Source: Minisyncoccia bacterium (GTDB taxonomy: Bacteria; Patescibacteriota; Minisyncoccia; SW-4-49-11). From it: DNA of 64,000 nt. The DNA lies in assembly GCA_044341565.1 (NCBI GenBank), contig JBIIRM010000001.1, positions 74,527 through 138,526 of the forward strand, given 5' to 3'. Below the pieces are notes generated by a model. The model saw nothing but the letters and a program-made list of their open reading frames with translations. It ran no database searches and had not been told where the DNA came from. The translations under genes were made by a program, and so were the position numbers. Below, piece by piece: positions 6,694 to 62,810 of this stretch. Position 1 is the first letter of the stretch. Each line of letters starts with the position of its first letter.

Positions 6694-7119
6694 ATGAGTA
6701 AGCCAATCAAAGCAGTTGTAAAGCTACAAGTTCGAGGAGGTCAAGCTACCCCAGCTCCACCAACAGGAACCGCATTAGGACCCCATGGAATTAAATTACA
6801 AGAATTTTGTATCAAATTTAATGATGCAACTCGAGAACAACAAGGAGAAGTTGTACCGGTAGAGGTAACAATTTATGAGGATAGAAGTTTTGACTTTGTT
6901 CTTAAAATTTCTCCTGTTTCAGCTCTTATCAAAAAAGAATTGAAACTTTCTAAAGGTTCTTCAATTCCAAATAAGACAAAGGTAGGAAAATTAAGCAAAG
7001 CTCAGGTATCAGCAATAGCTGAGAAAAAATTACCTGATCTTAATGCCTTTGAACTTGAAGCTGCTATGAAAATAGTAGAAGGTACTGCCCGATCAATGGG
7101 AGTAGAAATAACAGAGTAG
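6694..7119 (+). CDS. rplK: 50S ribosomal protein L11
   Basis: MSKPIKAVVKLQVRGGQATPAPPTGTALGPHGI… is canonical L11. Confidence 0.9.
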   Translation: MSKPIKAVVKLQVRGGQATPAPPTGTALGPHGIKLQEFCIKFNDATREQQGEVVPVEVTIYEDRSFDFVLKISPVSALIKKELKLSKGSSIPNKTKVGKLSKAQVSAIAEKKLPDLNAFELEAAMKIVEGTARSMGVEITE

Positions 7120-7166
7120 GAGAGTATTATTAATAATATTCGCTAATACTACATAACTATATCATT

Positions 7167-7847
7167 ATGAGATCCAAAGCCTATCGCAATATTATTGAAC
7201 AATTAGACCGAACTAAAATATACCCATTAACAGAAGGTATTCCTGTCGTATTGAGTTTTGCAAGAGCAAAATTTACCGAAAGCGTAGATATTCATATCAA
7301 GACTAATCTTAAAGGTACTAAAGGACCTCAATCAGTAAGAGGAACAGTGATTTTTAGCAAGCCAATTGCTAAGGGGAAAACAGTTTTAGTATTAACCGAA
7401 GATGAGGCTAAATTACAACAAGCTATCGCTGCAGGAGCTGATAAAGTTGGAGGAAAAGAAATTATTGATGAGATAAAGCAAGCTGGAGGTATTAATTATG
7501 ATGTAGTAATTGCAACTACTGATTTTATGCGATTTGTAGCACCAGTAGCTAAGATTTTAGGACCAAAAGGGCTTATGCCTTCTCCTAAAAATGGGACAGT
7601 AACTGATGATGTAGAGCGAGTAGTCAAAGAATTCAAGGCTGGTAAAGCTGAATTTAGAATGGATAAAACAGGAGTTATTCATCAGGCAATTGGGAATATA
7701 ACATTTAGTGCAGAGGAATTAGAAAAGAATATTCGAGAATTTGTAGCTGAAGTCCAAAAACATCAGCCAGAAAAGGTAAAAGGTGAATTTGTAAAGCATA
7801 TATATCTTTCCCTTACACAAAGTCCATCTATTAAAGTAAAGCTTTAA
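7167..7847 (+). CDS. rplA: 50S ribosomal protein L1
   Basis: 226 aa; L1 family; follows rplK as in the conserved rplKA pair. Confidence 0.85.
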   Translation: MRSKAYRNIIEQLDRTKIYPLTEGIPVVLSFARAKFTESVDIHIKTNLKGTKGPQSVRGTVIFSKPIAKGKTVLVLTEDEAKLQQAIAAGADKVGGKEIIDEIKQAGGINYDVVIATTDFMRFVAPVAKILGPKGLMPSPKNGTVTDDVERVVKEFKAGKAEFRMDKTGVIHQAIGNITFSAEELEKNIREFVAEVQKHQPEKVKGEFVKHIYLSLTQSPSIKVKL

Positions 7848-12265: not shown

Positions 12266-12724
12266 ATGATCATGATCGATGTTCCAACTCAAGTGATGGA
12301 GCAAATTACTGAGGAGTTCCCTTCTCATGCAGATAAACTTACTCAAGATAACCCCAGACCCATTCACCATTCGGATAATTGGATTGGAAATGTATGGTTT
12401 GACAAGCTTCAGGCGGCAGCAAATGCTAATACAGTTTTGAAACAATTATCTAATGGGCAAGAAAGCTTTAGCAATATTGGACCTATTGAAGTAGAGAAAA
12501 TTCATATTGCTTACTCTGATCAAGGATCAATTCGAGTTCGAGTCAGGAAAGGACATCAAAGTGATGAAATTCTCTTGATTCATATCAATACATACAATAT
12601 CACTATTAATGCATCACGTTTGTGGAAGCAAGATACGGATATAATTCCGTTTAGCAGAAATAATGCTAATACGATAATTCAAGTTTTGGAAAGGCAATTA
12701 CAGCAATATCGACATCTTATCTGA
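12266..12724 (+). CDS. Hypothetical protein (152 aa), no recognisable family
   Basis: ORF with three in-frame ATGs at its start; ends with the rare TGA stop; followed by a terminator-like hairpin. Confidence 0.4.
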   Translation: MIMIDVPTQVMEQITEEFPSHADKLTQDNPRPIHHSDNWIGNVWFDKLQAAANANTVLKQLSNGQESFSNIGPIEVEKIHIAYSDQGSIRVRVRKGHQSDEILLIHINTYNITINASRLWKQDTDIIPFSRNNANTIIQVLERQLQQYRHLI

Positions 12725-21903: not shown

Positions 21904-22428
21904 ATGGCATTAACCAAGTCACGCAAAAAAGAAATGTTGCAAGAATTGCAATCTACAATTTCTGACTCACAGGGAATGGTATTTACTGATTTTCAAGGTT
22001 CAGGGGTATCTGCTTTACAGACACTTCGAACTCAATTGAGAGTAGAAAATGCTCGATATAAAGTTGTAAAGAAAACCTTATTCAATAAGGCTTTACAGAA
22101 TCTTGGATTCGAAGTTTCATTAGCTGAACAACTTCCAGGAAATCTAGGAGTTGTATTCGCTGAGGATCCAGTATTTGGAGCAAAAGTAGTAAATGATTTT
22201 GCGAAATTAGCTCCCAAAGATACCTTTACCCTTTTAGGAGGATTATTAGATGGTCAATATCTTGTAGCTGAACAAGTTACTACTCTTGCCAAACTTCCTA
22301 CCAAGGAGGTCTTGCAAGCTCAAGTTGTTGGAACTCTTGCAGCTCCAATGACTCAATTCTTGCAAGTAACATCAGGAGTAGCAAGAGGTCTCGTTACCGT
22401 AATTTCGGCTTATCGAGATACGAAATAA
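21904..22428 (+). CDS. rplJ: 50S ribosomal protein L10
   Basis: 174 aa; L10 family; precedes rplL. Confidence 0.85.
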   Translation: MALTKSRKKEMLQELQSTISDSQGMVFTDFQGSGVSALQTLRTQLRVENARYKVVKKTLFNKALQNLGFEVSLAEQLPGNLGVVFAEDPVFGAKVVNDFAKLAPKDTFTLLGGLLDGQYLVAEQVTTLAKLPTKEVLQAQVVGTLAAPMTQFLQVTSGVARGLVTVISAYRDTK

Positions 22429-22447
22429 TTAAGTTAAGAATAACTAT

Positions 22448-22846
22448 ATGTCAGAAGAATTCACAGTACCCGCAAAATTTGAAAAGATTGTTGATGAGAT
22501 CAAGAATCTTAGTGTTATTGAATTATCAGAACTTGTAAAAGTTCTTGAAGAAGTTCTTGGTGTATCAGCTGCAGCTCCAGTTGCAGTAGGTATTGCCGCT
22601 CCAGCCGCAGGAGATGCTCCAGTAGCTGAAGAAAAGTCAGCTTTTGATGTTATCATTGAAGATGCTGGAAGCTCAAAAATTCAAGTAATCAAAGTAGTAA
22701 AAGAAGCTACTGGACTTGGACTTAAAGAAGCTAAAGATATCGTAGACGCAGCTCCTAAAGCTGTAAAAGAAGGAGTTTCAAAGGCAGATGCTGATGAACT
22801 TAAAGCTAAATTACAAGAAGCTGGAGCAACTGTTGTTGTTAAATAA
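22448..22846 (+). CDS. rplL: 50S ribosomal protein L7/L12
   Basis: 132 aa; Ala-rich hinge and C-terminal domain …[39 protein letters not shown]…. Confidence 0.9.
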
Positions 22847-27731: not shown

Positions 27732-29234
<1,503 letters not shown>

Positions 29235-36161: not shown

Positions 36162-36190
36162 TTGACAAGATAACAAATATAAGGTAATAT
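36162..36190 (+). promoter_or_regulatory. sigma70-like promoter for secE-nusG (TTGACA-17-TAATAT)
   Basis: TTGACA 36162-36167, 17-nt spacer, TAATAT 36185-36190. Confidence 0.45.
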
Positions 36191-36195
36191 TAGAC

Positions 36196-36396
36196 ATGCT
36201 ATTGAAGAATATTATGATAGGACCCATACAATATATTAAAGAGTCACAAGCTGAGATCAAAAAAGTCACTTGGCCAACTCGAGAAAAAGCATTTCAATAT
36301 ACTGGTATTGTTGCTATTATTTCTATTGTATCTATGATTATATTGGGTGGATTAGATATATTCTTCAACTTTATTCTCAAAACATTTATTCTCTAA
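36196..36396 (+). CDS. secE: Preprotein translocase subunit SecE
   Basis: 66 aa; …EIKKVTWPTREKAFQYTGIVAIISIV… single C-terminal TM; precedes nusG. Confidence 0.7.
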   Translation: MLLKNIMIGPIQYIKESQAEIKKVTWPTREKAFQYTGIVAIISIVSMIILGGLDIFFNFILKTFIL

Positions 36397-36410: not shown

Positions 36411-36959
36411 ATGGCAAAGCAACATCCTATTAGTATAGAAAAAAATTGGTATGTTATTCATAGTGTATCAGGACTAGAAGATAATGTGGCCCAGAATTTG
36501 AAAAAAAGAATAGAATCTCTTTCTATGGAAGATTATATTTTTGATGTTGTAGTTCCAAAGGAAAAGAAAATTAAAATTAAGAATGGGAAAAGAGTTACCG
36601 TAGAAGAGAGGATTTTTCCTGGATATGTATTTGTAGAAATGATTGTAACAGATAATTCTTGGTATGTTGTGCGGAATACTCCCAATGTAACAGGATTTAT
36701 TGGAGCTGGTACAACTCCAATTCCAGTTTCACCTGATGAAATGCATTTTATTGAAAAGAAAGTAACCAAAGAAGAGCCTAAATATACTCTTAATATTGAT
36801 ATTGATGATTTGGTTAAAATTACCGATGGACCATTTAAAGATTTTGAAGGAAAAGTATCTGAAGTTGATGAATCAAAAGGAAAATTGAAGGTTTTGGTAA
36901 ATATGTTTGGACGAAATACTCCTGTAGAGCTCGATTCACTACAAATCAAAAAAGTATAA
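36411..36959 (+). CDS. nusG: Transcription termination/antitermination factor NusG
   Basis: 182 aa; NGN domain (WYVIHSVSGLEDNV) and C-terminal KOW (…KITDGPFKDFEGKVSEVD…). Confidence 0.85.
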   Translation: MAKQHPISIEKNWYVIHSVSGLEDNVAQNLKKRIESLSMEDYIFDVVVPKEKKIKIKNGKRVTVEERIFPGYVFVEMIVTDNSWYVVRNTPNVTGFIGAGTTPIPVSPDEMHFIEKKVTKEEPKYTLNIDIDDLVKITDGPFKDFEGKVSEVDESKGKLKVLVNMFGRNTPVELDSLQIKKV

Positions 36960-36974
36960 ACTCAATTTGAGTTT

Positions 36975-37295
36975 ATGAAACATTTTACAAAAATGGTAGA
37001 AGATTTTATTTGTAAAAATTGCGGATTATCTGTACATGGTAATGGGTATACGAATCATTGTCCAGAATGTTTATATTCTCTTCATGTAGATAATTATCCA
37101 GGAGACAGACAAGAGAATTGTCAGGGTTTAATGAAGCCAATTGATATCATATCTAAAGGAGGGTATCCCATAGATATTATTCATGAATGTCAGATATGTC
37201 ATAGTATTAAATATAATAAAGTCAATGATAATGACTCTACTAATACGATTATTGAAATAATGAAAGAAAAAGTGAAAAAAGAAATGATGCGATAA
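36975..37295 (+). CDS. Small Cys-rich zinc-ribbon protein, probably of the RNHCP domain family
   Basis: 106 aa; CKNCG…TNHCPEC…CQICH; the NHCP motif matches the family name as I recall it. Confidence 0.4.
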   Translation: MKHFTKMVEDFICKNCGLSVHGNGYTNHCPECLYSLHVDNYPGDRQENCQGLMKPIDIISKGGYPIDIIHECQICHSIKYNKVNDNDSTNTIIEIMKEKVKKEMMR

Positions 37296-37350: not shown

Positions 37351-39042
37351 ATGGAATATACAAATCAATTTTTATCAATAGGATTATTGGTATTGAGCGG
37401 GATGATTAATTTCATTATCGGAATATTCATTTATTTTTTTGCATATCAATTATCCCATGGTAAATATGTATCATCTAAATATTTTGCATATCTTTGTTTT
37501 GGTATATTTACTTGGGCTTTATGGTTGGGGCTCCGAACCTTATATTTTTATCCTGAAGGAAATATATGGGGTATATATATTGCTAATATTGCTATTTATA
37601 TTACTATTATTAGTGTTGTACAGGTATTAGTGTTTTTTGGATTAGCTTTTCATAATACTCAACGTACATTTCATCAATATCGATTTTTATATTATCCTTA
37701 TATTTTGGTTGCAATAGCAATTCTTATCCCACAAGTTGGAATATTACAATTAGATGCTAATAATCCCATTGCATATCAATCATTAGCATATTATATATTT
37801 ATTCTTTATATTGTGAGTTATAGTATTTTATATATAAGTTTATTAGTATATCGCTATAATAGGGTAACTAATCATACAGCAAAAAGACATATACAAATTA
37901 TATTATTGGGGACAATATTTAGTTTATTAGCAGCATCTATCACAAATATTATACTTCCATCTATATTTGGTAATACTCAGTTTATTTATTATGGTCCAAT
38001 TGCAACGGTAGTATTATCAGCAACAGTATTATTTGCTATTATTCGGTATCGATTATTTCGTATACAGCTTCCTATTGCAGGACTCATGACAACATTGGTT
38101 ATTACTATTATATTATTAATTATACGATTTATTATTATTGATAATAATTTTTCGGAGGGAGTACAGTCAACTATGTTAGTCGTATTTATGTTTACCTGTT
38201 TATATACATTTTTAACCAGAGAAGCTTATGTAGGTGCCCAGAAACAAGTTATTCTCGATAATAAAAAACAAGAATTAGAAATTGCACTTGACTCCAAAAA
38301 TGATTTTTTGAAAAATGCCTCTCATCAACTCAGAACTCCATTAACAGTTATACAGGGATATTTAGCAATGATTACGGGAAAAGAAGATCCCAAATATACA
38401 TTAAATCAAGCAGCATTAGATGATTTGCAAAAAGCCTATATCAGTGCAAAAAATTTGAATGAAATTATTAATGATGTATTATCCGCTAATGATGTTAATG
38501 CAGGTCGTTTTGGTATAAATATCAAAGATACCATCGATTTAAAGGAATTAATTGATACGATTATTGAGGAAAAACATGAATTATTGAATAGTAAATCAAC
38601 TAAAGTAGTATTTAAGAGTAAAGGGACCGGTATGCAAGCCTTTATTGATAAAGGGAAATTAAAGGAAGCTCTTAATAATATTATTGATAATGCTGTCTTT
38701 TATGGGAAAGGAAAAATTAGTATTACTCTTGATGCTAAGGGAAAAGAATTTTTCATTATATCAGTTCAGGATAATGGGGTAGGTATTACCAAAGAAGATG
38801 CTAAGAAAATCTGGAGAAAATTTGAGAGAGGTAAAAAATCATCACTTATTAACCCCAATGGGTCTGGACTTGGGTTATATTTAGCAAAGCAAATTATGCT
38901 GAAACATGGTGGCGACATAGAGGCCCACTCAGATGGGAGAGATCAAGGTAGCATATTCATATTTACTCTTCCAAAGGAAACCTTAACGCATGCCCCAGCA
39001 GAATCATTTGGTATTAATATACCACAGGCTACTCAAGGGTAG
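37351..39042 (+). CDS. Membrane sensor histidine kinase (multi-TM N-terminal domain, no receiver)
   Basis: 563 aa; ~7-8 TM helices, H-box NASHQLRTPLTVIQGYL, G-box GSGLGLYLAK. Confidence 0.8.
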   Translation: MEYTNQFLSIGLLVLSGMINFIIGIFIYFFAYQLSHGKYVSSKYFAYLCFGIFTWALWLGLRTLYFYPEGNIWGIYIANIAIYITIISVVQVLVFFGLAFHNTQRTFHQYRFLYYPYILVAIAILIPQVGILQLDANNPIAYQSLAYYIFILYIVSYSILYISLLVYRYNRVTNHTAKRHIQIILLGTIFSLLAASITNIILPSIFGNTQFIYYGPIATVVLSATVLFAIIRYRLFRIQLPIAGLMTTLVITIILLIIRFIIIDNNFSEGVQSTMLVVFMFTCLYTFLTREAYVGAQKQVILDNKKQELEIALDSKNDFLKNASHQLRTPLTVIQGYLAMITGKEDPKYTLNQAALDDLQKAYISAKNLNEIINDVLSANDVNAGRFGINIKDTIDLKELIDTIIEEKHELLNSKSTKVVFKSKGTGMQAFIDKGKLKEALNNIIDNAVFYGKGKISITLDAKGKEFFIISVQDNGVGITKEDAKKIWRKFERGKKSSLINPNGSGLGLYLAKQIMLKHGGDIEAHSDGRDQGSIFIFTLPKETLTHAPAESFGINIPQATQG

Positions 39043-39090
39043 TATTCTTATGAGTAATATGGTATGATTAAGCCGCTTTAAAGCTATATT

Positions 39091-40701
39091 ATGTCGAAAA
39101 AATTATATATTACTACCAATTCAATTGGCTTTAAGCATCGCTTAAAACAAGTTCTTCAAGATATTTCAGTAACTATTCATCAAGGGGATAAAATTGCTTT
39201 GGTAGGGGATAATGGAACGGGTAAAACTACTTTATTAAAGATTATTGCAAATCTTATTAAGCCAACTAAGGGTATAGTTGAAGAATTAGATTCTGTATGG
39301 TATTTACCCCAATTAGATTTGGAAATATTTCACTCTAATATTCCTATTTCAGAGTATATATCACAGTTTATAGAAGATTGGTGGGAAGTTATTGATCTCA
39401 TTGAGCATACATTTGATTTTAGCATTGATACTAGCCGAGAACTTAATACCTTAAGTGGAGGAGAAATTGTAAAATTACATTTAGGTATTATTTTTTATAT
39501 TAAACCAAAAGTACTATTATTAGATGAGCCTACAAATCATTTAGATATACAAGCTCAAGAATGGTTGATCAAAGCTATACAGGAATATCCCTATAGTGTA
39601 TTAATTGCCTCTCATGACACCTCTTTTGCAGATAGAGTAGTAAATAGAGTATGGGAATTGGAGGATGGGAATATAAGAGAATTTGGCGGTAATGTGTCAT
39701 TTTATCGAGAACAAAAACGTTTAGAAAGTGAAGCGAGATTGCGTCGTTATGAAGTTGCTTTGAAGGATAAAAAACGTTTAGATAAATCGGTGGCATCAGA
39801 GGCGAAAAGACAAGAACAAAATATACAGGTTGGAATTAGAAGTAGACAGGATAGAAGTGTATCTCGTATGGATAGAGGATATCTTAAAAGCAAGGCTCAG
39901 ATGAGAGCGGGACAAAAAAAATTAATGTATGATTCCCGATTAGAAGATAATAAGGAAATTATTCATGAGCTAGAACCACAAATAAAGCGAGATGTAAGAT
40001 ATTATATTCCTCATCAAACAATACAAAATCAAGAAATTATCCTCAATATTCGAGATGGTCTTGTACAAGTTGCTGAAACGGTACTTATTCGAGATATTCG
40101 ATTTCAAGTTTCTAGCGGGGACAGAATTGCTTTGATTGGAGGAAATGGGACGGGTAAAAGTCAATTTTTTCATATGCTTATGAAAAGACAATTATCTTCT
40201 GGTATTTTAGAAATTAAAGATAAGACTAATATTGTATATATGGACCAAACATATGCAATTGTTTGTCCCCATAAGACGATATTGGAAAATATGCGAGATT
40301 ATAATCCCAAAGCTTCTATGATGACAATTCGTCAAAAATTAAGAGAATTTTTATTTTGGGATGATTATCAAGTAAATCAATATGCAGAAAACTTATCCGG
40401 GGGGCAAGTAGCAAGATTAGCCTTTGCAATGATTAGTTTACAACAAGTAGATATATTATTATTAGATGAGCCTACAAATAATCTTGATATTTCAACACAA
40501 GAGGCAATTATACAAGGATTATTAGCGTATAAAGGAGCTTTAATTATTATTTCTCATTCACTTGATTTCTTGAATCGAGTAGGAATTCAGGATATATACT
40601 GTGTTGCAAATCAGCAATATATTCAGCATCCTTATAGTATTGAAGATGAAAGATTTCATAGTAAATTATTAGAAATAATCGGTAATGGAATTGTCCCTTA
40701 A
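39091..40701 (+). CDS. ABC-F family ATPase (tandem ABC domains, no TMD)
   Basis: 536 aa; Walker A GDNGTGKTT and GGNGTGKS, signatures LSGGE and LSGGQ, ~110 aa charged inter-domain linker. Confidence 0.8.
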   Translation: MSKKLYITTNSIGFKHRLKQVLQDISVTIHQGDKIALVGDNGTGKTTLLKIIANLIKPTKGIVEELDSVWYLPQLDLEIFHSNIPISEYISQFIEDWWEVIDLIEHTFDFSIDTSRELNTLSGGEIVKLHLGIIFYIKPKVLLLDEPTNHLDIQAQEWLIKAIQEYPYSVLIASHDTSFADRVVNRVWELEDGNIREFGGNVSFYREQKRLESEARLRRYEVALKDKKRLDKSVASEAKRQEQNIQVGIRSRQDRSVSRMDRGYLKSKAQMRAGQKKLMYDSRLEDNKEIIHELEPQIKRDVRYYIPHQTIQNQEIILNIRDGLVQVAETVLIRDIRFQVSSGDRIALIGGNGTGKSQFFHMLMKRQLSSGILEIKDKTNIVYMDQTYAIVCPHKTILENMRDYNPKASMMTIRQKLREFLFWDDYQVNQYAENLSGGQVARLAFAMISLQQVDILLLDEPTNNLDISTQEAIIQGLLAYKGALIIISHSLDFLNRVGIQDIYCVANQQYIQHPYSIEDERFHSKLLEIIGNGIVP

Positions 40702-40742
40702 ATTGTGATACTATAAATATACATAATCCAATATAAATAAAA

Positions 40743-42335
40743 ATGATTTATAGTATCTTATCATTAGGTGTAATTGCAATTCTTAGTATTGCTTGGACTT
40801 TAGTATATAAAAAAAATCATACAAGTATATCACAATGGTTCTTATTTCCCTTGACGGGAGCGATTATATGGACATTTGGTTGGTTGGGAATACACATTAT
40901 TTTTTCTAAGCCAGATTTTTTTTCAAAGTCTCTATATATAATCTTCCAACAAATTATGTTCTCAGGACTTATTGCTGTGCCATTAGGTCTTATTATAACA
41001 GCATTGTATTATCCATTTAGTAAGACAAATACTGTATATAAGAATAGAATTTCTTGGGCTATTAGTATTGTGTATATACTATTTTTGATTCCTATTTACA
41101 CCTCATTTCATTTATTTCAAAATATCAGCATATATAACAATGGTGTTGTCTTAGAATATGGACCTTTATTCCAATATTATCAAATAGGATTAGGGATAGC
41201 TTTATTTATGAGTATTATAGTCATTATAAGTCGATTAAAGCATATTCAAAAAAAGAAAGACAAAATAGTATCATTATATTTTATTATGGGTTATTTTATC
41301 ACTATCATAGGGTACATTACTAGCACATTATTTATTTTTATTCAAGGGGATAGTACTTTTATGAAATATAACCCACTTTTATTACTGGTCTGGATTGGAT
41401 TTATTGTAATAGGAGCTATTCAATATAAATTAGTTGACTCAAAAATCTTTATATCCCAAATTATTATTATATGGGCAGTAATTATTATTGCTGTTATCAC
41501 ATTTAGTAATACATCACCAGTTACTCTTATTATTGACATATTATTTCTGATTATATTTAGTGTATTAGGAATTATTCTTATACAAAACTTACAAGAATCA
41601 TCTTATATCAAAAAAGATTTAAATAGAGATAATCGCAAATTACAAAAATTTATTAATGTAAAAGATAATTTTTTGAGAATGACAACACATCAATTGAGAA
41701 CCCCAGTAATTATTTTAGAAGAATATACCAGTACTTTGATAAATAAAGTATCAAAGAATCAGTCTCCTGAATTAGACTATTTACATAAAATTCTTATTAA
41801 TAATTATCGATTAAAAGAAGTGATAGAGGATTTAACTCTTACTTATGCTATAGAAGCTGATAAATTTGAATTAAATCATATTGTTCCAGTAGATATTGCT
41901 CTCATCATAGAGCATGTCATGGAGGATATTAAAACATCTCAAAAATATCTTGATATTACAATGCGATTAGAAAAAGCCAATAGAAATTATATTATTAAGG
42001 GGGAAGCCCATTATTTAGAATTAGCTTTTAAAAAAGTAATACAGAATGCCTATATATTTGCAAATGAAGAAGTGATAATACGGTTACATACCAATAAGGA
42101 TAGTATTCTTATTTCTATTGTAGATGATGGAATTGGTATTAATAAAGATGATTTGCGACAATTATTCCTTCCTTTTATACGAGGATATAGGGCTCCTGTA
42201 TTAAATCCAGATGGATCTGGATTAGGTATTTACTTAACAAAACATATTGTTAATAGCCATGAAGGTAAATTTATGTTAAAAAGTGATGGTGAGGGCTTGG
42301 GTGCTGAAGCTATAATTATTCTCCCTAAAAATTAA
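40743..42335 (+). CDS. Membrane sensor histidine kinase (paralogue)
   Basis: 530 aa; multi-TM N-terminus, H-box MTTHQLRTPVII, G-box GSGLGIYLTK. Confidence 0.8.
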   Translation: MIYSILSLGVIAILSIAWTLVYKKNHTSISQWFLFPLTGAIIWTFGWLGIHIIFSKPDFFSKSLYIIFQQIMFSGLIAVPLGLIITALYYPFSKTNTVYKNRISWAISIVYILFLIPIYTSFHLFQNISIYNNGVVLEYGPLFQYYQIGLGIALFMSIIVIISRLKHIQKKKDKIVSLYFIMGYFITIIGYITSTLFIFIQGDSTFMKYNPLLLLVWIGFIVIGAIQYKLVDSKIFISQIIIIWAVIIIAVITFSNTSPVTLIIDILFLIIFSVLGIILIQNLQESSYIKKDLNRDNRKLQKFINVKDNFLRMTTHQLRTPVIILEEYTSTLINKVSKNQSPELDYLHKILINNYRLKEVIEDLTLTYAIEADKFELNHIVPVDIALIIEHVMEDIKTSQKYLDITMRLEKANRNYIIKGEAHYLELAFKKVIQNAYIFANEEVIIRLHTNKDSILISIVDDGIGINKDDLRQLFLPFIRGYRAPVLNPDGSGLGIYLTKHIVNSHEGKFMLKSDGEGLGAEAIIILPKN

Positions 42336-42337
42336 AT

Positions 42338-43975
42338 ATGAATACAGATTCACAATATATTATTGAAGTATTATTAGGCTCTATTGGGGGGCTATTAAGT
42401 TTAGCCTTGGGGGTATTTTGTGTCGTAATATATAGAAGTACAGTTAAAAAATATACTATAAAGCATCGATATGTAGGGTGGTTTGGAGTATTATTAATTG
42501 CTACAGGAATTTGGGCATTATGTGAGGTCTGGAATGAACAGCAATTTTTTGGAGGATATGAATTGGCACTTACCTATGGAATTGGTATAATGTTACCCCT
42601 TATATTTTATATTTTTGTTAAATCATTGGATAATACATTCAAATGGGATTGGAAATTCTTTCTCTTTCTCTTTATACAGATAAGTATTATTTTGTATTTA
42701 ATTCACCCACAATATGGCATTGTAGATTATCAATATCCATCGCCTGAATTACGACTAGGATCTTTTCAGCATCTTGTATTTGTACTCTATATGTTCTTAG
42801 CCAGTTTTCTCGGATTATCATATTTATTAAAGATTGTACGTACAAAAACCATTCCTTATGCTGAGGGTATATTTGTTGCTCTAGCAGTACCATTTAGTGT
42901 TGTAGCAATTGCTAATATTGTAATTCCCTTTATATTCCTTGATAATTCATATCATCGTATTGGGCCATTGGGATTATTATTAATGGCTATATATATAACC
43001 TATATTATTATTAAACAAGAGGCTTTAAAAATACCGGTTATTCTATTCCAGTTATATGCACTTGGAACTATTCTGGTTACAGCTATTGCAGTACAAATAG
43101 GGTTAATCTTATTTGGAGTTACAAGTATTTTTCAACCGGAAAGAATTATTTTGATTATTATATTAAGTATTATCGTGGGAGTTTTAATGAATCAAACATT
43201 ACAAGGGTTGGAAGATGCCAATTTAGTGCAAAAAGTCCACAAAGAATTAAAATCTTCTATTAAGGCTAAGAATCAATTTATTCAAATATCCTCGCATCAG
43301 TTAAGAACTCCTATTACTGCAATTAAGGGATATTTATCTTTATTAAAAGAAGCGCATGCCCCCAAAGATGATGCAATGGGCCATTATATTGTACAAATGA
43401 GTGTCATTGTACAAAATATGTCTACTGTTATTGAGGATGTTTTGAATGTAAACTCTCTTAATTCTGGTGATTTTAGTGTAAGACTAGATGATATATTTGA
43501 CTTAGAAAAACAATTAACAGACACAGTTGAAAATAAATCATTCCTAATGGATAAGTCAAATATCAGTTATACTTATACCGTAAAAGGAGATGATTTTATG
43601 ATAAAGGGAGATGAGGTAAAAATACGAGAAGTTTTGAATAATGGACTTGATAATGCTTTGCAATATGGTAAAGACCACATTAAGATCCAACTTATTGGAA
43701 ATAAAAAAGAAATACAAATTAAAATACAAGATAATGGTATTGGTATTACGCCAGCAGAGCAAAAAATTATTTTTAAACCATATAAAAGAGGCGAATCTGC
43801 TCAGCAAATACGTCATGATGGAACTGGGCTTGGGCTTCATTTGATGAAATTGATCATAGAAGCCCATAAAGGAACTGTTAGTATAAAAAGTGAGGGAAGA
43901 GATAAAGGAAGTATGCTTACCATAACGATTCCAAGAATTCATCAAGATAATAAAAAGGTGGTGGAAGAGAAATAA
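42338..43975 (+). CDS. Membrane sensor histidine kinase (paralogue)
   Basis: 545 aa; multi-TM N-terminus, H-box SSHQLRTPITAIKGYL, G-box GTGLGLHLMK. Confidence 0.8.
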   Translation: MNTDSQYIIEVLLGSIGGLLSLALGVFCVVIYRSTVKKYTIKHRYVGWFGVLLIATGIWALCEVWNEQQFFGGYELALTYGIGIMLPLIFYIFVKSLDNTFKWDWKFFLFLFIQISIILYLIHPQYGIVDYQYPSPELRLGSFQHLVFVLYMFLASFLGLSYLLKIVRTKTIPYAEGIFVALAVPFSVVAIANIVIPFIFLDNSYHRIGPLGLLLMAIYITYIIIKQEALKIPVILFQLYALGTILVTAIAVQIGLILFGVTSIFQPERIILIIILSIIVGVLMNQTLQGLEDANLVQKVHKELKSSIKAKNQFIQISSHQLRTPITAIKGYLSLLKEAHAPKDDAMGHYIVQMSVIVQNMSTVIEDVLNVNSLNSGDFSVRLDDIFDLEKQLTDTVENKSFLMDKSNISYTYTVKGDDFMIKGDEVKIREVLNNGLDNALQYGKDHIKIQLIGNKKEIQIKIQDNGIGITPAEQKIIFKPYKRGESAQQIRHDGTGLGLHLMKLIIEAHKGTVSIKSEGRDKGSMLTITIPRIHQDNKKVVEEK

Positions 43976-43988
43976 TTCAGTTTTCCTC

Positions 43989-44017
43989 TTGACTAAATTC
44001 CAAATATGGTTTAGAAT
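43989..44017 (+). promoter_or_regulatory. Putative promoter of the tuf-S10-spc operon (TTGACT-17-TAGAAT)
   Basis: TTGACT 43989-43994; TAGAAT 44012-44017. Confidence 0.4.
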
Positions 44018-44085: not shown

Positions 44086-45282
44086 ATGGCAACCGAAAAG
44101 TATGAGCGAAACAAGCCCCATGTAAATGTAGGAACTATTGGTCATGTTGATCATGGTAAAACAACATTAACTGCAGCTATTCTTAATGTACTTAGTTTAA
44201 GAGGAAATGTAGTTACAAAAAAAGCTGTTAATGAAATCGATGCAGCTCCTGAGGAAAAAGCTCGAGGAATTACCATTGCTACAGCTCATGTTGAGTATGA
44301 ATCAGATACTCGTCATTATGCACATATTGATTGTCCAGGACATGCTGATTATATCAAGAACATGATTACCGGTGCTGCTCAAATGGATGGAGCTATCTTA
44401 GTAGTATCTGCTGCAGATGGTCCTATGCCTCAAACTCGAGAGCATATTCTTCTTGCAAATCAAATTGGAGTACCTCAAATTGTAGTATTCCTTAATAAAG
44501 TTGATCAAGTTGATGATGAGGAATTGATTGAACTTGTAGAAGTAGAAGTTCGAGAACTATTAAGTAAATATAGTTTTGATGGAGATAATGCTCGAATTGT
44601 TCGAGGATCAGCTCTTAAGGCTCTTGAAACAACTGATGTTAATTCAGATGCAGCTAAGCCAATCTTAGAGCTTGTTGATGCTCTTGATGAAGCTATTCCA
44701 GAACCAAAGCGAGAAATTGATTTAGATTTCTTGATGCCAGTTGAAGATATTTTCTCAATTGAAGGACGAGGAACTGTAGTAACCGGAAGAATCGAAAAAG
44801 GAATTATCAAAGTAAACTCAGAAGTAGAAATTGTTGGACTTCGACCTACTCAAAAAACAGTTGTTACTGGAGTTGAGATGTTCAAAAAGCTTCTTGATGA
44901 AGGGCAAGCCGGAGACAATGTAGGGCTTCTTCTTCGAGGAGTTAAAAAAGAAGATGTTGAAAGAGGACAAGTACTTGCAAAAGTTGGATCTATTACTCCT
45001 CATACTGAATTTGAAGCTGAGGTATATGTTCTAACAAAAGAAGAAGGAGGACGACATACCCCATTTGTATCTGGGTATAAGCCACAATTCTATATTCGAA
45101 CTACTGATGTAACAGGAGAAATCACTCTTCCTGAAGGATCAGAATTAGTTATGCCAGGAGATACTGTTACTGTAAAAGTTGCTCTTGTAGCTCCTATTGC
45201 ACTTACTGACAATCAAAGATTTGCAATTCGAGAAGGTGGGCATACTGTTGGAGCTGGAGTTGTTACGAAAGTTATCAAATAA
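44086..45282 (+). CDS. tuf: Elongation factor Tu
   Basis: 398 aa; [23 protein letters not shown]…DCPGHADY…NKVD. Confidence 0.95.
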
Positions 45283-55590: not shown

Positions 55591-57162
55591 ATGAAAAAAA
55601 TAAATTCAATATTAGGTATGGTCGTATTAATGACATCTTTGTTTTCCCCTCAGATAGCAGTATTAGCTCAGGGTATATCGAGTATGGATATAGATAACTT
55701 AACTCAAGAAGAATATGATAATCTAGTGAAAGAAAGAGAGCAACTTGAAAGTAGTCGGGGGGAGCTTCCAGAACCCCTATCACCAACTCCACCCACAGCA
55801 GAAGAGGTAGAGAGATGGATTAAGGAAAGCGAAGATAATCCCCCAGAAGAAATTCCATATATAAGTACATTAAAGGAAGAAGGTTTAAAGAATGCATCAC
55901 TAGGTAATTGCTTTGATGTATATAAATTTAATAATATACGACTAGGTATTATTGTGGATCAAAATGAATATCAGACAGGAGCAGAAGCTAAGCCAGGATC
56001 AGGTCTTATAAGATTTACAGGAAATATTGAAAATAATAATAATTATCCACTAGTAGATTTAAAGATAAAAGCTAAAATAGTTAAAATTGAACAAGAAGGT
56101 AATAAGAGAATAGTTAAGACAGTAGATGAAATAGTGATAAAAGATAATATAAGCTTAGCAAGTCAGGGAACACAGGAGATAGATGAATCATACCAACTAC
56201 CAATTAAGGCGGCTAAAGGAGACTATGAAATATTATTGTCTGTAGTTTCCAATGATCAGATTAGTGTAGCGGGATTAAGCTTTACAGATGATGTATATGC
56301 ATCTAAATTAAATTTTAAAATAGAAGGTGATAATACAGAAGAGATAATTATTAAACAAAAAGATATAACGATCAATGATGTTCCGTATAATAATTTATCA
56401 TTCAATCCTAAATATAGAGATAAAAGACCAGTTACAATCAAAGTACCGATACAGAACAATACAGATACAGATAAAGAAGTAGAAGTAGAATATGAAGTAT
56501 ATAGCTGGAGTGATGACATAGGGAAAATAAAGAAAGAATTAAAACAATTAAAAACAATAGCCAAGCAAGGTACAAGTATAGCAAGCTATACAATAGAAGA
56601 ACAAGCAGAAGCAGTATATTATATTAAAATAAAAGTTAGAGGTAATAATGTGCTCACAAATATGAGCTGGAAAAATATAGCAAATATAAGGTTTGTGAAT
56701 GAAGATATAAGTGAGCCAAGAATAGCTGCGGTAACATTAAATACTAGCCCATATAGTCCAGAAAAAGGTGATATACAGCTTTTAACTTGTATACATAATA
56801 CGAATGAGACTGAAGTGGAAACAATAGTAGAAAACACCATAAAAGATGAGAGTGGTAAAATAATAGCAAGTAGTGAATATAAAGGAACGGTTACAGGTCA
56901 AGTTGATGGTATATATACTCAATTGCCAAAAAATAAGAGATATAATACCTTAATGGTAACAAGTACAATTAAGGATAAAGACGGAAATATACTGAATACC
57001 GTTGACTTAAATTATGACTGTAAAGAATTAAACCCAAATCAATGTGGTCAGGGAAATACAAATGGTAGTATATGGGTATTATTAGGAGGATTATTAGTGT
57101 TAGGAGGGCTAGTGTTTGGATTTCGAGAATATAGAAGGAGAGCATTAAAGTCGATAAAATAA
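55591..57162 (+). CDS. Secreted, C-terminally membrane-anchored surface protein (signal peptide plus C-terminal TM helix and basic tail), unknown family; paralogue of 61404-62810
   Basis: 523 aa; N-terminal signal MKKINSILGMVVLMTSLFSPQIAVLAQG; C-terminus …GSIWVLLGGLLVLGGLVFGFREYRRRALKSIK; blocks conserved with the paralogue: NCFDVYKF, LLTCIHNT, NYDCKELNPNQC. Confidence 0.6.
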   Translation: MKKINSILGMVVLMTSLFSPQIAVLAQGISSMDIDNLTQEEYDNLVKEREQLESSRGELPEPLSPTPPTAEEVERWIKESEDNPPEEIPYISTLKEEGLKNASLGNCFDVYKFNNIRLGIIVDQNEYQTGAEAKPGSGLIRFTGNIENNNNYPLVDLKIKAKIVKIEQEGNKRIVKTVDEIVIKDNISLASQGTQEIDESYQLPIKAAKGDYEILLSVVSNDQISVAGLSFTDDVYASKLNFKIEGDNTEEIIIKQKDITINDVPYNNLSFNPKYRDKRPVTIKVPIQNNTDTDKEVEVEYEVYSWSDDIGKIKKELKQLKTIAKQGTSIASYTIEEQAEAVYYIKIKVRGNNVLTNMSWKNIANIRFVNEDISEPRIAAVTLNTSPYSPEKGDIQLLTCIHNTNETEVETIVENTIKDESGKIIASSEYKGTVTGQVDGIYTQLPKNKRYNTLMVTSTIKDKDGNILNTVDLNYDCKELNPNQCGQGNTNGSIWVLLGGLLVLGGLVFGFREYRRRALKSIK

Positions 57163-57166
57163 GCAT

Positions 57167-59326
57167 ATGAAAAACCTTAAATATAACCATATGAAATATA
57201 TAGTAATACTACTATTATCCTTAATAGTATATATGTTACCTCAACAAAGTTCTGCAATATCCGTACCAGTTAATTATACAGATAGCTGGAATTATTATAG
57301 ATTACATAAAAGAGGTGGCTGTGGAGGTCCACCTGACTTTAAGGCGCAAACATTGTTTGGTATGAGTCTAGACAAACAATTTACTCTTCAAGCTCAAGGT
57401 ATTAGAAACTTAAATCAAAATGAGTCAGGAGCTGGAGATATCCCTGTTGGAACAAATTTGCTTGCATATAATGATAATGTAACCGGATCTTATTGGTACG
57501 CTCAAGTAGATAATGCTACTCCCCCCATGGACAATAATATATATAACTGGAATTATATGAGCAGTGGAGGAGATTGTTCAGGCGGTTATGAGGTGCAAAA
57601 TCAGATGCGAGGAGGGATAATAGGTCAAGTGGGGCATAGTATCTCAAGTAGTGATCCGAGTATTATAGATTGTGCTTCAGCACCTAATCTTAGTAGAGGA
57701 TGTACTACTAAAAGAGAAGGAGTTGCCACATTGACTGTTAGTTGGCCAGGGTCTGGTTCTTATTATGTCGAAAGGAATTACCAGTGGGGGAGTACTTTCC
57801 CTAAGATTACATATGAAGCGCAGGTATGTACAGTCACTGGATATACATTTGTAAGATATTCGGGGCGTGTACCTATAACAAAATGTTCTTGTCCTGCTGG
57901 TACAAATCAAAGAATCGTGTCAACTGGTCGTGTTGGTGGTCAAAGCGTGGTCTGTATAAGAAATTTGGGGAACGTCTTTACTGCAGCGGGAGGAGGGTAT
58001 GCAAGGGAGGGATGGGGATATTCCTTAAATCCAATAACCTATACTGTAAGAGTAAAGAATCCAAACCAAGCACCAACAGTAGCCTATACAGGAACAACAG
58101 GTATAGGATATAATACCGCAACAGCAAATTGGAGCTATAGTGATGTGGATGGAGATGCTCAAACAAATGCTGCAGTACAAATAGCTACTGATCCCGGCTT
58201 TACTAATATTGTATGGGGTGGATATGCTGGTACTGCAAGTAATATAGCAATATCAGGACTTATACCAGGGACAACATATTATCCACGAGTAGCAGCATAT
58301 AATCCAGTAAACGGATGGACAGGATGGTTAAATGGAGTAGCCTTTAGTACAAAAGTAAATAATCCACCTAATCTAGATCAATTAAGCTGTGGAGGAACAG
58401 GAACAGGATATACAACAGGTAATATAAATTGGAATTATACAGGTACAGATGAGCCAGGAGATGAGTTAGTATTAAAAGCAAAATGGAGAAGAGAAGGAGA
58501 AGTAGATTGGGTATGGGACAACTTACCATATAATACTAGAACAGGAAACATAGATATAAGTGGATTAATATCTGGATATGAGTATGACATACAAGTAAGT
58601 CTAAACGATAACCGCAATAGCAACTTAGGAGATAGATGGAAAGGATGTGGAAGATTTACAACCACAGAATATCCAGAACCTAGCGTAGATTTCAATTTAA
58701 AGAGTGGAAGTACAACAGTAGCAAAAGGAGAAACTTTAACAATAAAGACAGGAGATCCAATTAGTACAAATTGGAAAATAACTAATACAGACGGGTTGAA
58801 TCCTAGTAGTTGTGCATTAAGTACCGAAGGAGTAAGGACTATATTTAATGAAAGTGGTTTAGGGTTTGGACCAGACTCGAGACAAAACAATAATGTAGAA
58901 CCAGATAAAGCTGATCAAACATATACAATAAATCTTAGTTGTACAGGGAAGGAGGCAAAAGTTCCAAGATCAGTCAATGCAAATATTACATTAGTGATAC
59001 AAAGCTATCCGTTAATAAGTTGTAGAGTAGTAAATACTAAGGTAGTAAGTGCAGAGAGGCCAACAGCAGAAGTAGAAGGGACAATAGGGAATGCAAATCC
59101 ACAATATACATGGCGAATAAAAAGGACAATAGGAGAGAATTATGGAAGTCCAATAACAAGTGATAGTACAACACAAAAATTCACTCTAGATTATACAGGA
59201 TTAGGACTAGGGAAATACAATCCAGTCATAGAAGCAAAAGGATCATTAGGAAGAACAGCAGAGAAAACCTGTACTGGAGATATAACTAATTTTGGGGATA
59301 GATCTATTAGAGAAGTAGCTAAATAG
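57167..59326 (+). CDS. Secreted Cys-rich protein with fibronectin type III-like repeats; paralogue of 62814-64000+
   Basis: 719 aa; signal peptide; >20 Cys; FN3-like blocks (…ANWSYSDVDGDAQ…GLIPGTTYYPRVAAYN… and …NINWNYTGTDEPGDEL…). Confidence 0.6.
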   Translation: MKNLKYNHMKYIVILLLSLIVYMLPQQSSAISVPVNYTDSWNYYRLHKRGGCGGPPDFKAQTLFGMSLDKQFTLQAQGIRNLNQNESGAGDIPVGTNLLAYNDNVTGSYWYAQVDNATPPMDNNIYNWNYMSSGGDCSGGYEVQNQMRGGIIGQVGHSISSSDPSIIDCASAPNLSRGCTTKREGVATLTVSWPGSGSYYVERNYQWGSTFPKITYEAQVCTVTGYTFVRYSGRVPITKCSCPAGTNQRIVSTGRVGGQSVVCIRNLGNVFTAAGGGYAREGWGYSLNPITYTVRVKNPNQAPTVAYTGTTGIGYNTATANWSYSDVDGDAQTNAAVQIATDPGFTNIVWGGYAGTASNIAISGLIPGTTYYPRVAAYNPVNGWTGWLNGVAFSTKVNNPPNLDQLSCGGTGTGYTTGNINWNYTGTDEPGDELVLKAKWRREGEVDWVWDNLPYNTRTGNIDISGLISGYEYDIQVSLNDNRNSNLGDRWKGCGRFTTTEYPEPSVDFNLKSGSTTVAKGETLTIKTGDPISTNWKITNTDGLNPSSCALSTEGVRTIFNESGLGFGPDSRQNNNVEPDKADQTYTINLSCTGKEAKVPRSVNANITLVIQSYPLISCRVVNTKVVSAERPTAEVEGTIGNANPQYTWRIKRTIGENYGSPITSDSTTQKFTLDYTGLGLGKYNPVIEAKGSLGRTAEKTCTGDITNFGDRSIREVAK

Positions 59327-61403: not shown

Positions 61404-62810
61404 ATGCAAAGAAAATATAAAGCATTAGCAATATTCGGGATAATAGTAACACTATTGTCACCACATATAATAGTGAGAGCCCAAGAAGATAATATTGAGG
61501 GTGATGTTTTGACAGATATATCAGGTCTAGACCCCACATCTGTAAAAGAAGGTGAAATTACAAACTGTTTCGATACCTATAAATTTGGTTCAGAAGGCAT
61601 AGCTCTTACAGCGGGGTCAGAGCTTAATGAATATAAGCCATATGATTTGGTAGAAGTCTCAGGAAAAATATCAAATAACAATCCTTATCCGGTATTAGGA
61701 CTAACAGTAAGAGCTAGGGTATTGAGAAATCACCCTAACCCAGTAATACAAAGAGCATTATATACCACCGTAGATGACCTTGTGGTAGCAGATAATATAT
61801 TAATTAAAGCAAATAGTGAATATGATTTAAATTTTGCTTATAATATCTCAGGAAATGCACCAGCAGGTGAATATAAGATACAGTATTATGTATATAACCA
61901 AAATAGATTTAATTTAAATGGACTATCCTTTACTGAAGATATAGTGTCAAATATGACAGAATTTGAGGTATTGGGTGGGAATGAGCATTTATACCTAGAT
62001 AAAACTAATATCACTGTAGATGGACAGATTAATGACACTAGGGCGTTTATCACACAACATGAGCAGGGTAAAGATATACCAGTCAGATTACCATTAATTA
62101 ATCCAACAGGAAAAACTCAAGAAGTAGAGGTTAGTTATAAATTATATAAATGGGATGAGATATTGGAAAGCAATTTTATAGAAGAGCGGATTCAACAAAT
62201 AACTATAGAAGCTAATGGTAAAATAGATTTAGAATATATAGTAAAGCAGACAGAATATCCAGTGTATTATATGGTTATAGAAGCAAATCCAATAGGAGAA
62301 AATTTAAAGTCTCCTAATAACCAAGAAAAAACAATGGCACATATAAGGTTCTCAGTAGAAGGTAGTAATAGACCAAGAGTAAATTGGGTAGGATTAAATA
62401 AGAATCCATTTGAAGGTGGAGATGTTGAATTATTAACATGTGTACATAATACTGTGTTTGAGACAGATGAAGGTCCAGTAAAAGTTCAAAGTATAGCTAA
62501 GGATGAGAAAGGAAGAGAGCTAAGTAAAATAGAGTATGAAGGTGTAATGCCATCAGCAATAAGTGGAATAAAGAATAAACTCAATACAGAAAAAAAATTT
62601 AATACAGTCACAATAGAGACAAGTATATACAATGCAAGCAATGAGCTAGTAGATAATATAATCACAAATTATGATTGTAATGAAATAAGTCCAGATTTGT
62701 GTTTAGTAGAATCAAAATCTAATAATATAATAATTATAGCAGGGCTAATATTATTAGGTATATTGGGAGGATTTATAGTATATAAGAGGTATAAGAAGTT
62801 AAAGAATTAA
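61404..62810 (+). CDS. Secreted, C-terminally membrane-anchored surface protein; paralogue of 55591-57162
   Basis: 468 aa; signal peptide MQRKYKALAIFGIIVTLLSPHIIVRAQ; C-terminus …IIIIAGLILLGILGGFIVYKRYKKLKN; shares the NCFDTYKF, LLTCVHNT, NYDCNEISPDLC blocks. Confidence 0.6.
   Translation: MQRKYKALAIFGIIVTLLSPHIIVRAQEDNIEGDVLTDISGLDPTSVKEGEITNCFDTYKFGSEGIALTAGSELNEYKPYDLVEVSGKISNNNPYPVLGLTVRARVLRNHPNPVIQRALYTTVDDLVVADNILIKANSEYDLNFAYNISGNAPAGEYKIQYYVYNQNRFNLNGLSFTEDIVSNMTEFEVLGGNEHLYLDKTNITVDGQINDTRAFITQHEQGKDIPVRLPLINPTGKTQEVEVSYKLYKWDEILESNFIEERIQQITIEANGKIDLEYIVKQTEYPVYYMVIEANPIGENLKSPNNQEKTMAHIRFSVEGSNRPRVNWVGLNKNPFEGGDVELLTCVHNTVFETDEGPVKVQSIAKDEKGRELSKIEYEGVMPSAISGIKNKLNTEKKFNTVTIETSIYNASNELVDNIITNYDCNEISPDLCLVESKSNNIIIIAGLILLGILGGFIVYKRYKKLKN

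Follow-up and report, generated by a model that had tools for sequence, protein, structure and literature searches.

A 64,000-nucleotide stretch of the genome of a Minisyncoccia bacterium (contig JBIIRM010000001.1, positions 74,527 to 138,526 of the forward strand; called the window below) encodes three membrane sensor histidine kinases (HKs), named HK1, HK2 and HK3, in one co-directional run between nusG and tuf. We consider it probable that they are three functional orphan kinases of the HisKA_7TM type, old paralogues of the kinase/stand-alone-receiver pair of the phylum, and that they signal to a receiver encoded elsewhere. An earlier note, made from the sequence of this DNA alone, had described them as an unexpected three-fold expansion that feeds a distant regulator or has a non-canonical output. 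The finding is mostly ordinary; less ordinary are the fixed adjacency of the HK1 lineage to an ABC-F gene and the existence of a relative in which the phospho-acceptor histidine is replaced by leucine.

Domains, integrity and age of the three kinases

The kinase genes and the gene embedded among them are as follows:

37351..39042, + strand: HK1 (563 aa), with a sensor at about residues 1-290, a DHp domain with His325 (codon 38323-38325) and a CA domain
39091..40701, + strand: ABC-F ATPase (536 aa; NF000355, two ABC_tran domains)
40743..42335, + strand: HK2 (530 aa), with His316 (codon 41688-41690); the most divergent paralogue
42338..43975, + strand: HK3 (545 aa), with His320 (codon 43295-43297); begins 2 nt past the HK2 stop

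These open reading frames (ORFs), their lengths, their shared direction and the position of the ABC-F gene between the kinases are exactly as had been described. Judging from domains and motifs, all three kinases are intact class-I histidine kinases (HisKA plus HATPase_c). Pfam HisKA and HATPase_c were matched by HK1 with 50.8 and 79.2 bits and by HK3 with 45.2 and 78.3 bits, respectively. HK2 scores 49 bits for HATPase_c and 22.6 bits for HisKA, which is under the 26.9 cut-off, although its motifs are nonetheless intact. The N, G1, F and G2 boxes of the ATP-binding domain were found in each protein, and the motif check agrees with the near-identical H-boxes reported before (SHQLRTPLT in HK1, THQLRTPVI in HK2 and SHQLRTPIT in HK3). 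No HAMP, PAS, GAF or REC domain was detected in the three kinases by Pfam, nor was there any Response_reg match, and the proteins end 20-30 residues past the G2 box. The earlier statements that HAMP and PAS domains are lacking and that none of the kinases is a hybrid therefore hold.

The phospho-acceptor histidine column is kept in 146 of 149 representatives of the kinase family, and the "HQLRTP" form of the H-box is typical of the whole family (106/128 representatives with a recognisable motif). The glutamine that follows the histidine was considered as a sign of a kinase-dead or phosphatase-only protein; this was rejected, as it is the majority state in those same 128 representatives. It is also found in many kinases from other phyla.

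Decay of the genes into functionless remnants would fit the HisKA score of HK2 under the Pfam threshold and the ratio of nonsynonymous to synonymous substitution rates (dN/dS) in its kinase part, which is the highest (0.14-0.20). However, no reading frame is interrupted, each catalytic motif is retained, every domain has a dN/dS far below 1 and the genes are conserved across relatives; we give this reading next to no credence, and regard it as essentially refuted. Against two relatives, dN/dS was 0.11-0.15 for HK1, 0.18 for HK2 and 0.13-0.14 for HK3, compared with 0.05-0.06 for the ABC-F gene and 0.02-0.10 for neighbouring housekeeping genes, and the kinases thus appear to be functional and under purifying selection, but faster-evolving. 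A recent expansion in this lineage, by tandem duplication of a single kinase gene in response to new needs for adaptive sensing, would likewise account for three genes of the same architecture in tandem with near-identical H-boxes. This possibility was refuted, and we hold it to be highly improbable: protein identity between the paralogues is low (23-27% overall, 27-38% in the catalytic core), there are no DNA-level repeats linking HK1, HK2 and HK3, separate orthologues exist in relatives, and the H-box that they share is family-wide, as noted above. Notable direct repeats occur only between the two halves of the ABC-F gene.

Stretches from relatives, given L numbers, were compared with the window. 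The order nusG-RNHCP-HK1-ABCF-HK2-HK3-tuf is conserved in L002, L003, L004 and L021; all three paralogues have separate, collinear orthologues in these loci, down to the 59% HK1 identity of L021. A distant sister lineage (L024/L108), with sigma-70 77% and DnaG 41% identical, has an HK1-like gene (HKb) and an HK2-like gene (HKa). Bootstraps in the kinase tree are only 46-62%. HK1 itself occurs in metagenome-assembled genomes labelled Saccharibacteria (uncultured; 99% identity), Paceibacteria (88%) and Parcubacteria (83%), while remoter homologues are named Paceibacterota or Patescibacteria. The host is accordingly a freshwater member of the Paceibacteria, within the candidate phyla radiation (CPR). 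As far as sequence can tell, HK1-HK3 are ancient paralogues and not a recent expansion, since the phylogeny and synteny comparisons that had been suggested place them in separate orthologue groups already in relatives with 59% HK1 identity. Nor is their number surprising: CPR genomes carry a mean of 0.29 HKs per 100 genes, with a range of 0-1.11 and the widest spread in Paceibacteria (PMC10805038), and three HKs are thus unremarkable for a CPR-sized genome. The expansion that had seemed unexpected is neither recent nor, against that mean, large.

In the HK1 sensor, residues 13-238 match HisKA_7TM (PF16927), a sensor domain already described (PMC5847659), with a score that just equals the cut-off (28.6 bits). 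No direct match to this model, even at E <= 10, was obtained for HK2 or HK3, or for their orthologues. In profile-profile comparisons with the sensors of PF16927-matching paired kinases, over 202-247 collinear columns, HK1 reached E=1.6e-10, HK2 4.3e-7 and HK3 3.8e-7; in addition, the HK2 sensor matched the HKa profile of L024 (E=1.7e-10) and the HK3 sensor is homologous to that of HK1 (E=2e-6). The three sensors are therefore predicted to be divergent HisKA_7TM members by transitive homology, not by a curated threshold. The paralogy that had been proposed extends in this way to the sensors at the profile level, although for HK2 it is invisible by BLAST. Of the two sensor types that had been suggested for checking, HisKA_7TM was found as just described, whereas HK1-HK3 have no Pfam match to the LytS (5TMR-LYT, PF07694) model, or to that of 7TMR-DISM (PF07695).

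An AlphaFold2 model of HK1 (mean predicted local distance difference test score 79) contains nine membrane helices: a seven-helix bundle (residues 2-233) and two further helices (240-263, and 267 onward) that lead into DHp. The N-terminal domain is thus polytopic, as had been stated, but with nine rather than about seven to eight transmembrane (TM) helices in HK1; hydropathy gives 8-9 peaks in HK2 and HK3. In the model, TM9 runs unbroken from residue 267 to 342 through His325 and is continuous with DHp helix 1. The loops obey the positive-inside rule, with the N-terminus out and the C-terminus in, and the only sizeable outside loop comprises residues 126-144. The cytoplasmic core has HK853, ZraS, CpxA, WalK, RetS and DivL as structural matches, while the sensor domain has no relative by sequence in the PDB. 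This architecture appears to be common and the family large: when 1.84 billion representatives were searched, the best 150 matches (at 50% identity clustering) included about 100 proteins of 500-600 aa that aligned over their whole length with 26-33% identity.

Receiver-paired relatives and the absence of a local receiver

The earlier note had found no receiver-domain gene in the window, and four tests agree with it. A tblastn search with five classical RECs gave a best E of 0.41; a six-frame scan of the window with the REC hidden Markov model (HMM) found none; a further such scan, with an HMM for the stand-alone RECs of Patescibacteria (120 sequences), gave a best E of 3.8; and Pfam found no REC in 29 further ORFs of the window. 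The flanks, some 17 kb in all (about 7 kb before the window and 10.5 kb after it), are also free of REC genes. HMM scans detected no REC in the loci of the clade (L001-L004, L020-L025 and L108), which represent five to six independent loci of roughly 20 kb each. As a control, a metagenome scan that picked up generic kinase motifs gave 80 loci, nearly all with unrelated kinases, of which 34 had enough flank; the REC HMM found a REC at most 3 kb from the kinase in 23 of these 34, and anywhere in the locus in 28. As the HMM finds RECs beside control kinases and none in clade loci, the orphan status of the kinases is real and conserved, and not an artefact of the window edge. The earlier observation of kinases without a local regulator thus extends to every clade relative examined.

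More remote relatives do have a partner. In L109, the gene for a 524-aa HisKA_7TM kinase (30% identity to HK1) is separated by 61 nt from that for a 121-aa stand-alone receiver downstream, and a search starting from this receiver led to the same kinase-receiver pair and neighbourhood in L110 and L112 (gaps of 5-61 nt in the three loci). In L026 an orthologous receiver lies about 1 kb downstream of the kinase, and L027 has a more divergent receiver. The stand-alone receivers, of 121-124 aa, are located at:

L109:11512-11877
L110:6001-6375
L112:6001-6372
L026:4995-5387

Their signature, AFSNFDDP...KDYLIKTNYTPQE, is highly conserved, and the pair belongs to a fixed gene block (Mur ligase ... HK-REC-Asn/AspRS-Peptidase_S11-MraY-MurL). 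Patescibacteria have many such stand-alone RECs: the family gave 4468 matches, the best 120 of which are 117-137 aa long and 56-100% identical. From these comparisons, the HK-REC pair is a predicted phylum-wide two-component pair among cell-wall genes.

The paired kinases resemble those of the window in being 522-560 aa long, with a polytopic sensor followed by HisKA and HATPase_c and no HAMP or PAS domain, in their "SHQLRTP" H-box, and in their profile-homologous sensors (E 1e-10 to 4e-7). They differ in being only 24-31% identical to HK1-HK3, which have no adjacent receiver and are present in three copies with an ABC-F gene near nusG and tuf, not in a cell-wall block; HK2 and HK3 also lack the direct Pfam HisKA_7TM match. 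Positions His+8, +11, +12 and +15 of DHp helix 1 reportedly set the choice of partner, according to rewiring work on HK853. At these positions, paired kinases have A-G-Y-M/L, HK1 has V-G-Y-M and HK3 has A-G-Y-L, so that HK1 and HK3 are nearly identical to the paired kinases there, and helix 1 of HK3 is nearly identical to that of the REC-paired kinase of L026. HK2 has I-E-Y-T, and its orthologue in L021 I-E-Y-N. On the strength of this one helix, we infer that HK2 has diverged, whereas HK1 and HK3 may have kept the ability to dock the receiver type of the paired kinases. The low HisKA score of HK2, its highest dN/dS and its I-E-Y-T pattern together suggest a different partner or role for this kinase.

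The window kinases thus largely fall within a paired family, their sensors being homologous to those of the receiver-paired kinases of L109, L110, L112 and L026. As these relatives are directly paired with a stand-alone receiver, the non-canonical output that had been proposed is weakened, while a distant regulator, the other option raised at the time, stands as the best reading.

The ABC-F gene, a sister-lineage pseudokinase and the surrounding genes

The protein encoded between HK1 and HK2 matches the NCBIfam model NF000355, "ribosomal protection-like ABC-F", with 385 bits against a cut-off of 380. It has its two ABC_tran domains, a weak ABC_tran_Xtn match (188-246) and no membrane domain, and its gene carries the Walker A and Walker B DNA repeats D3 and D1. 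Its nearest outside relatives are likewise named ribosomal protection-like ABC-F, and we predict that it is a member of this ribosomal-protection-like translation factor family.

The HK1 lineage adjoins the ABC-F gene in all clade loci. In the sister lineage the arrangement is (variable genes)-HKa-HKb-ABCF with gaps of 1-24 nt. L024 and L108 do not have the same genes between RNHCP and the kinases, and in L024 the cluster leads into GT4-LytR, unlike the downstream genes of the window. Eleven HK1 and ABC-F protein clusters have the same longest contig, several of these contigs being only 2.7-5.6 kb long, and the ABC-F of L024 is marginally closest to that of the window clade. The zinc-ribbon protein RNHCP, for whose domain function no literature was found, is encoded upstream of the kinases in every clade locus, by nusG in the window clade and by sigma-70 in the sister lineage (L024:5542-5853; L108:1982-2290). 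Apart from housekeeping genes, only RNHCP and ABC-F remain with the kinases.

HKb, the HK1-like gene directly upstream of ABC-F in the sister lineage (P0046, P0044 and P0045; also P0364 and P0367), is located at:

L024:10001-11635
L025:10001-11635
L108:10001-11629

Its H-box reads AS-L-QLRTPLTVI where that of HK1 reads AS-H-QLRTPLTVI, with a CTT or CTC codon in place of CAT; the H-box is otherwise intact, as are the N, G1, F and G2 boxes. The leucine is found in three separate 50%-identity clusters, ranked 4th, 6th and 10th among the nearest relatives of HK1 (3/149 representatives). By these features, HKb is a putative conserved histidine pseudokinase. It is important to note that the change does not apply to HK1 of the window, which retains His325.

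The other features of the cluster are:

36162-36190, upstream of secE: promoter-like site TTGACA-17-TAATAT, a consensus match not above chance in the region
36196..36396, + strand: secE (66 aa), an ORF that opens the co-directional run; PF00584 SecE is annotated here on identical contigs
36411..36959, + strand: nusG (Pfam NusG, 97 bits, plus KOW)
36975..37295, + strand: RNHCP-domain zinc-ribbon protein (106 aa; Pfam PF12647, 93.7 bits)
43989..44017, + strand: promoter-like site TTGACT-17-TAGAAT in the HK3-tuf spacer, a consensus match not enriched over shuffles
44086..45282, + strand: tuf (EF-Tu), from its translation; annotated GTP_EFTU in the syntenic L021, with the S10 ribosomal operon next

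The cluster does adjoin the tuf/ribosomal operon as had been noted, with tuf and the S10 operon directly downstream. Its spacers measure 55 nt (RNHCP-HK1), 48 nt (HK1-ABC-F), 41 nt (ABC-F-HK2), 2 nt (HK2-HK3) and 110 nt (HK3-tuf). A terminator scan found none between the cluster genes, the sole terminator-like match (42377-42393) being inside HK3, and promoter-like matches in the region were at chance level against shuffles; the operon structure is therefore read from spacing. On that basis we infer that the ABC-F gene and the kinases are co-transcribed with secE-nusG-RNHCP, and the HK3-tuf spacer is a possible end of the kinase transcription unit.

Several other observations were made in the window, whose G+C content is about 33%. 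The secE-nusG-rplKAJL arrangement is broken up: rplK-rplA (6694-7847) and rplJ-rplL (21904-22846) are about 14 kb apart, separated by genes for a ribonucleotide reductase, a 1076-aa UvrD/PD-(D/E)XK helicase-nuclease, a GT4 glycosyltransferase, a DUF4012 protein, MurB, a PrsW protease and Hsp20, and secE-nusG lies another 13 kb downstream of rplJ-rplL. A complete bacterial 16S rRNA gene (27732-29233; full-length model match, 1410 bits) lies between murJ and a minus-strand VKOR gene, with no 23S or 5S gene beside it; the ORF at 27845-28204 (minus strand) inside it is spurious. No tRNA genes (ARAGORN) and no 23S gene were found in the window. Three ORFs have no Pfam match (12266-12724, 152 aa; 55591-57162, 523 aa; 61404-62810, 468 aa), that at 57167-59326 has only a weak fn3 match, and a 687-aa fn3/Ig-like protein is encoded just outside the window after the ORF at 61404-62810. 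Going by these profiles, the Pfam-less and fn3-type ORFs may encode CPR-specific surface proteins.

Proposed signalling and comparison with known systems

In the mechanism that we propose, each of HK1-HK3 would be a homodimeric class-I (HisKA/HK853-like) kinase. A GPCR-like (G-protein-coupled receptor) bundle of seven helices, together with the two additional helices, would sense a membrane-borne or small lipophilic signal; there is almost no extracellular domain. The last membrane helix would run into DHp helix 1, so that helix movement could reach the catalytic core without HAMP or PAS. The core would then autophosphorylate on His325 (HK1), His316 (HK2) or His320 (HK3), and the phosphoryl group would pass to a putative receiver encoded elsewhere, the likeliest being the 121-124-aa stand-alone receiver of the phylum. 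HK1 and HK3 might converge on that receiver, with HK2 insulated or having a different partner. The signal, the identity of the receiver and its presence in this genome are all presumed in this scheme.

Several results weigh against this proposal. The scans found no REC in the window, its 17 kb of flanks or the clade loci, and none of the top 120 stand-alone REC clusters is on a contig attributable to this clade. HKb lacks the phospho-acceptor histidine, so the HK1 branch can work without classical phosphotransfer, and the HK1 lineage stays joined to ABC-F through rearrangements on both sides. It should also be noted that the DHp comparison, limited to helix 1, does not amount to a validated prediction of specificity.

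These results bear on the other explanations. The genome might lack any receiver, with the kinases phosphorylating or regulating a non-REC target such as RNHCP or the ABC-F protein; the REC-free 81 kb or so of the source genome and REC-free clade loci would agree with this, as would the constant company of those two genes. We judge it very unlikely, as 81 kb is a fraction of a genome that is probably under 1 Mb, the DHp docking surface is conserved and like that of REC-paired relatives, and the stand-alone REC family is near-ubiquitous in the phylum. Orphan kinases with distant partners are, moreover, common in bacteria. Alternatively, the kinases and ABC-F might form one module or multikinase network that touches translation, with paralogues forming heteromers or modulating one another, much like DivL and RetS-GacS, and with ABC-F co-regulated with, or controlled by, the HK1-lineage protein, so that a membrane signal would reach the ribosome without a dedicated local regulator. 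The constant adjacency of HK1 or HKb to ABC-F while both flanks change points in this direction, as do the gaps of 1-48 nt with no intergenic terminator, the shared longest contigs and the marginal closeness of the L024 ABC-F. So does HKb, a His-less protein with intact ATP-binding boxes encoded 1-4 nt after the His-bearing HKa, since signalling by binding is documented for a histidine pseudokinase, DivL (PMC4211667). On the other hand, L023 and L024 share the whole upstream block L21-NifU-Fer4-LGT-DnaG-sigma70, so the adjacency may be inherited synteny, and inheritance alone could explain part of it; ABC-F relatives at 46% and 39% identity occur in other Patescibacteria without a kinase neighbour; the literature search yielded no precedent for an HK-ABC-F link; and HK1 of the window keeps His325 and all catalytic boxes. 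We therefore regard such a module as unlikely, although it is the chief rival reading. Its stricter form, in which the module would act mainly by contacts of the HK1-lineage protein that relay the membrane signal to ABC-F and on to translation, and not by a transcriptional response regulator, seems quite doubtful. Signalling of the three orphan kinases to a distant receiver remains the reading that we favour.

The cluster indicates that several membrane sensors, old and maintained by selection, persist even in very small CPR genomes; they belong to a kinase/receiver family that is phylum-wide and has so far been without experimental study. If the kinase-ABC-F linkage and the pseudokinase were borne out, they would hint that membrane sensing can act on translation by a route so far unrecognised, in organisms where transcription factors are few, and would extend the short list of histidine pseudokinases to the CPR.

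Among known systems, class-I kinases of the PhoR/HK853/WalK type resemble those of the window: the best NCBIfam similarities of the window kinases are to PhoR, PnpS and WalK, and the V-G-Y-M of HK1 helix 1 is presumably that of Escherichia coli PhoR as well. The scores are far under the cut-offs (e.g., 127 against 334 bits), however, and the window kinases are thus not orthologues of any named kinase. They also differ in having Gln, and not Glu or Asp, after the histidine, nine TM helices in place of two with PAS/HAMP, and no adjacent OmpR-family regulator. The layout, and only the layout, recalls the BceS-BceAB module. A BceS/BceAB-type detoxification module was ruled out, as there is no permease gene, HK1 has nine TM helices (BceS has two) and no BceR-like regulator is encoded here; the ABC protein is an ABC-F with two fused ATPase domains and no FtsX domain. 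The predicted HK1 sensor model shares 5-11% identity with eukaryotic and archaeal seven-helix receptors of the GPCR/rhodopsin-like fold, which gives homology no support, and up-down helical bundles match each other easily; unlike in those receptors, the output of HK1-HK3 is a histidine kinase.

The orphan kinases and pseudokinases DivL and RetS-GacS offer a parallel for kinases encoded away from any regulator, and the HK1 model core has both DivL and RetS among its best structural matches. HKb, with a non-phosphorylatable leucine at the histidine site and its N, G1, F and G2 boxes kept, resembles DivL, which has Tyr550 at this site, keeps all other boxes and signals by binding (PMC4211667). 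The likeness is one of sequence and predicted structure: the three kinases of the window all keep their histidine, whereas DivL and RetS, which have PAS or periplasmic sensors, come from Proteobacteria.

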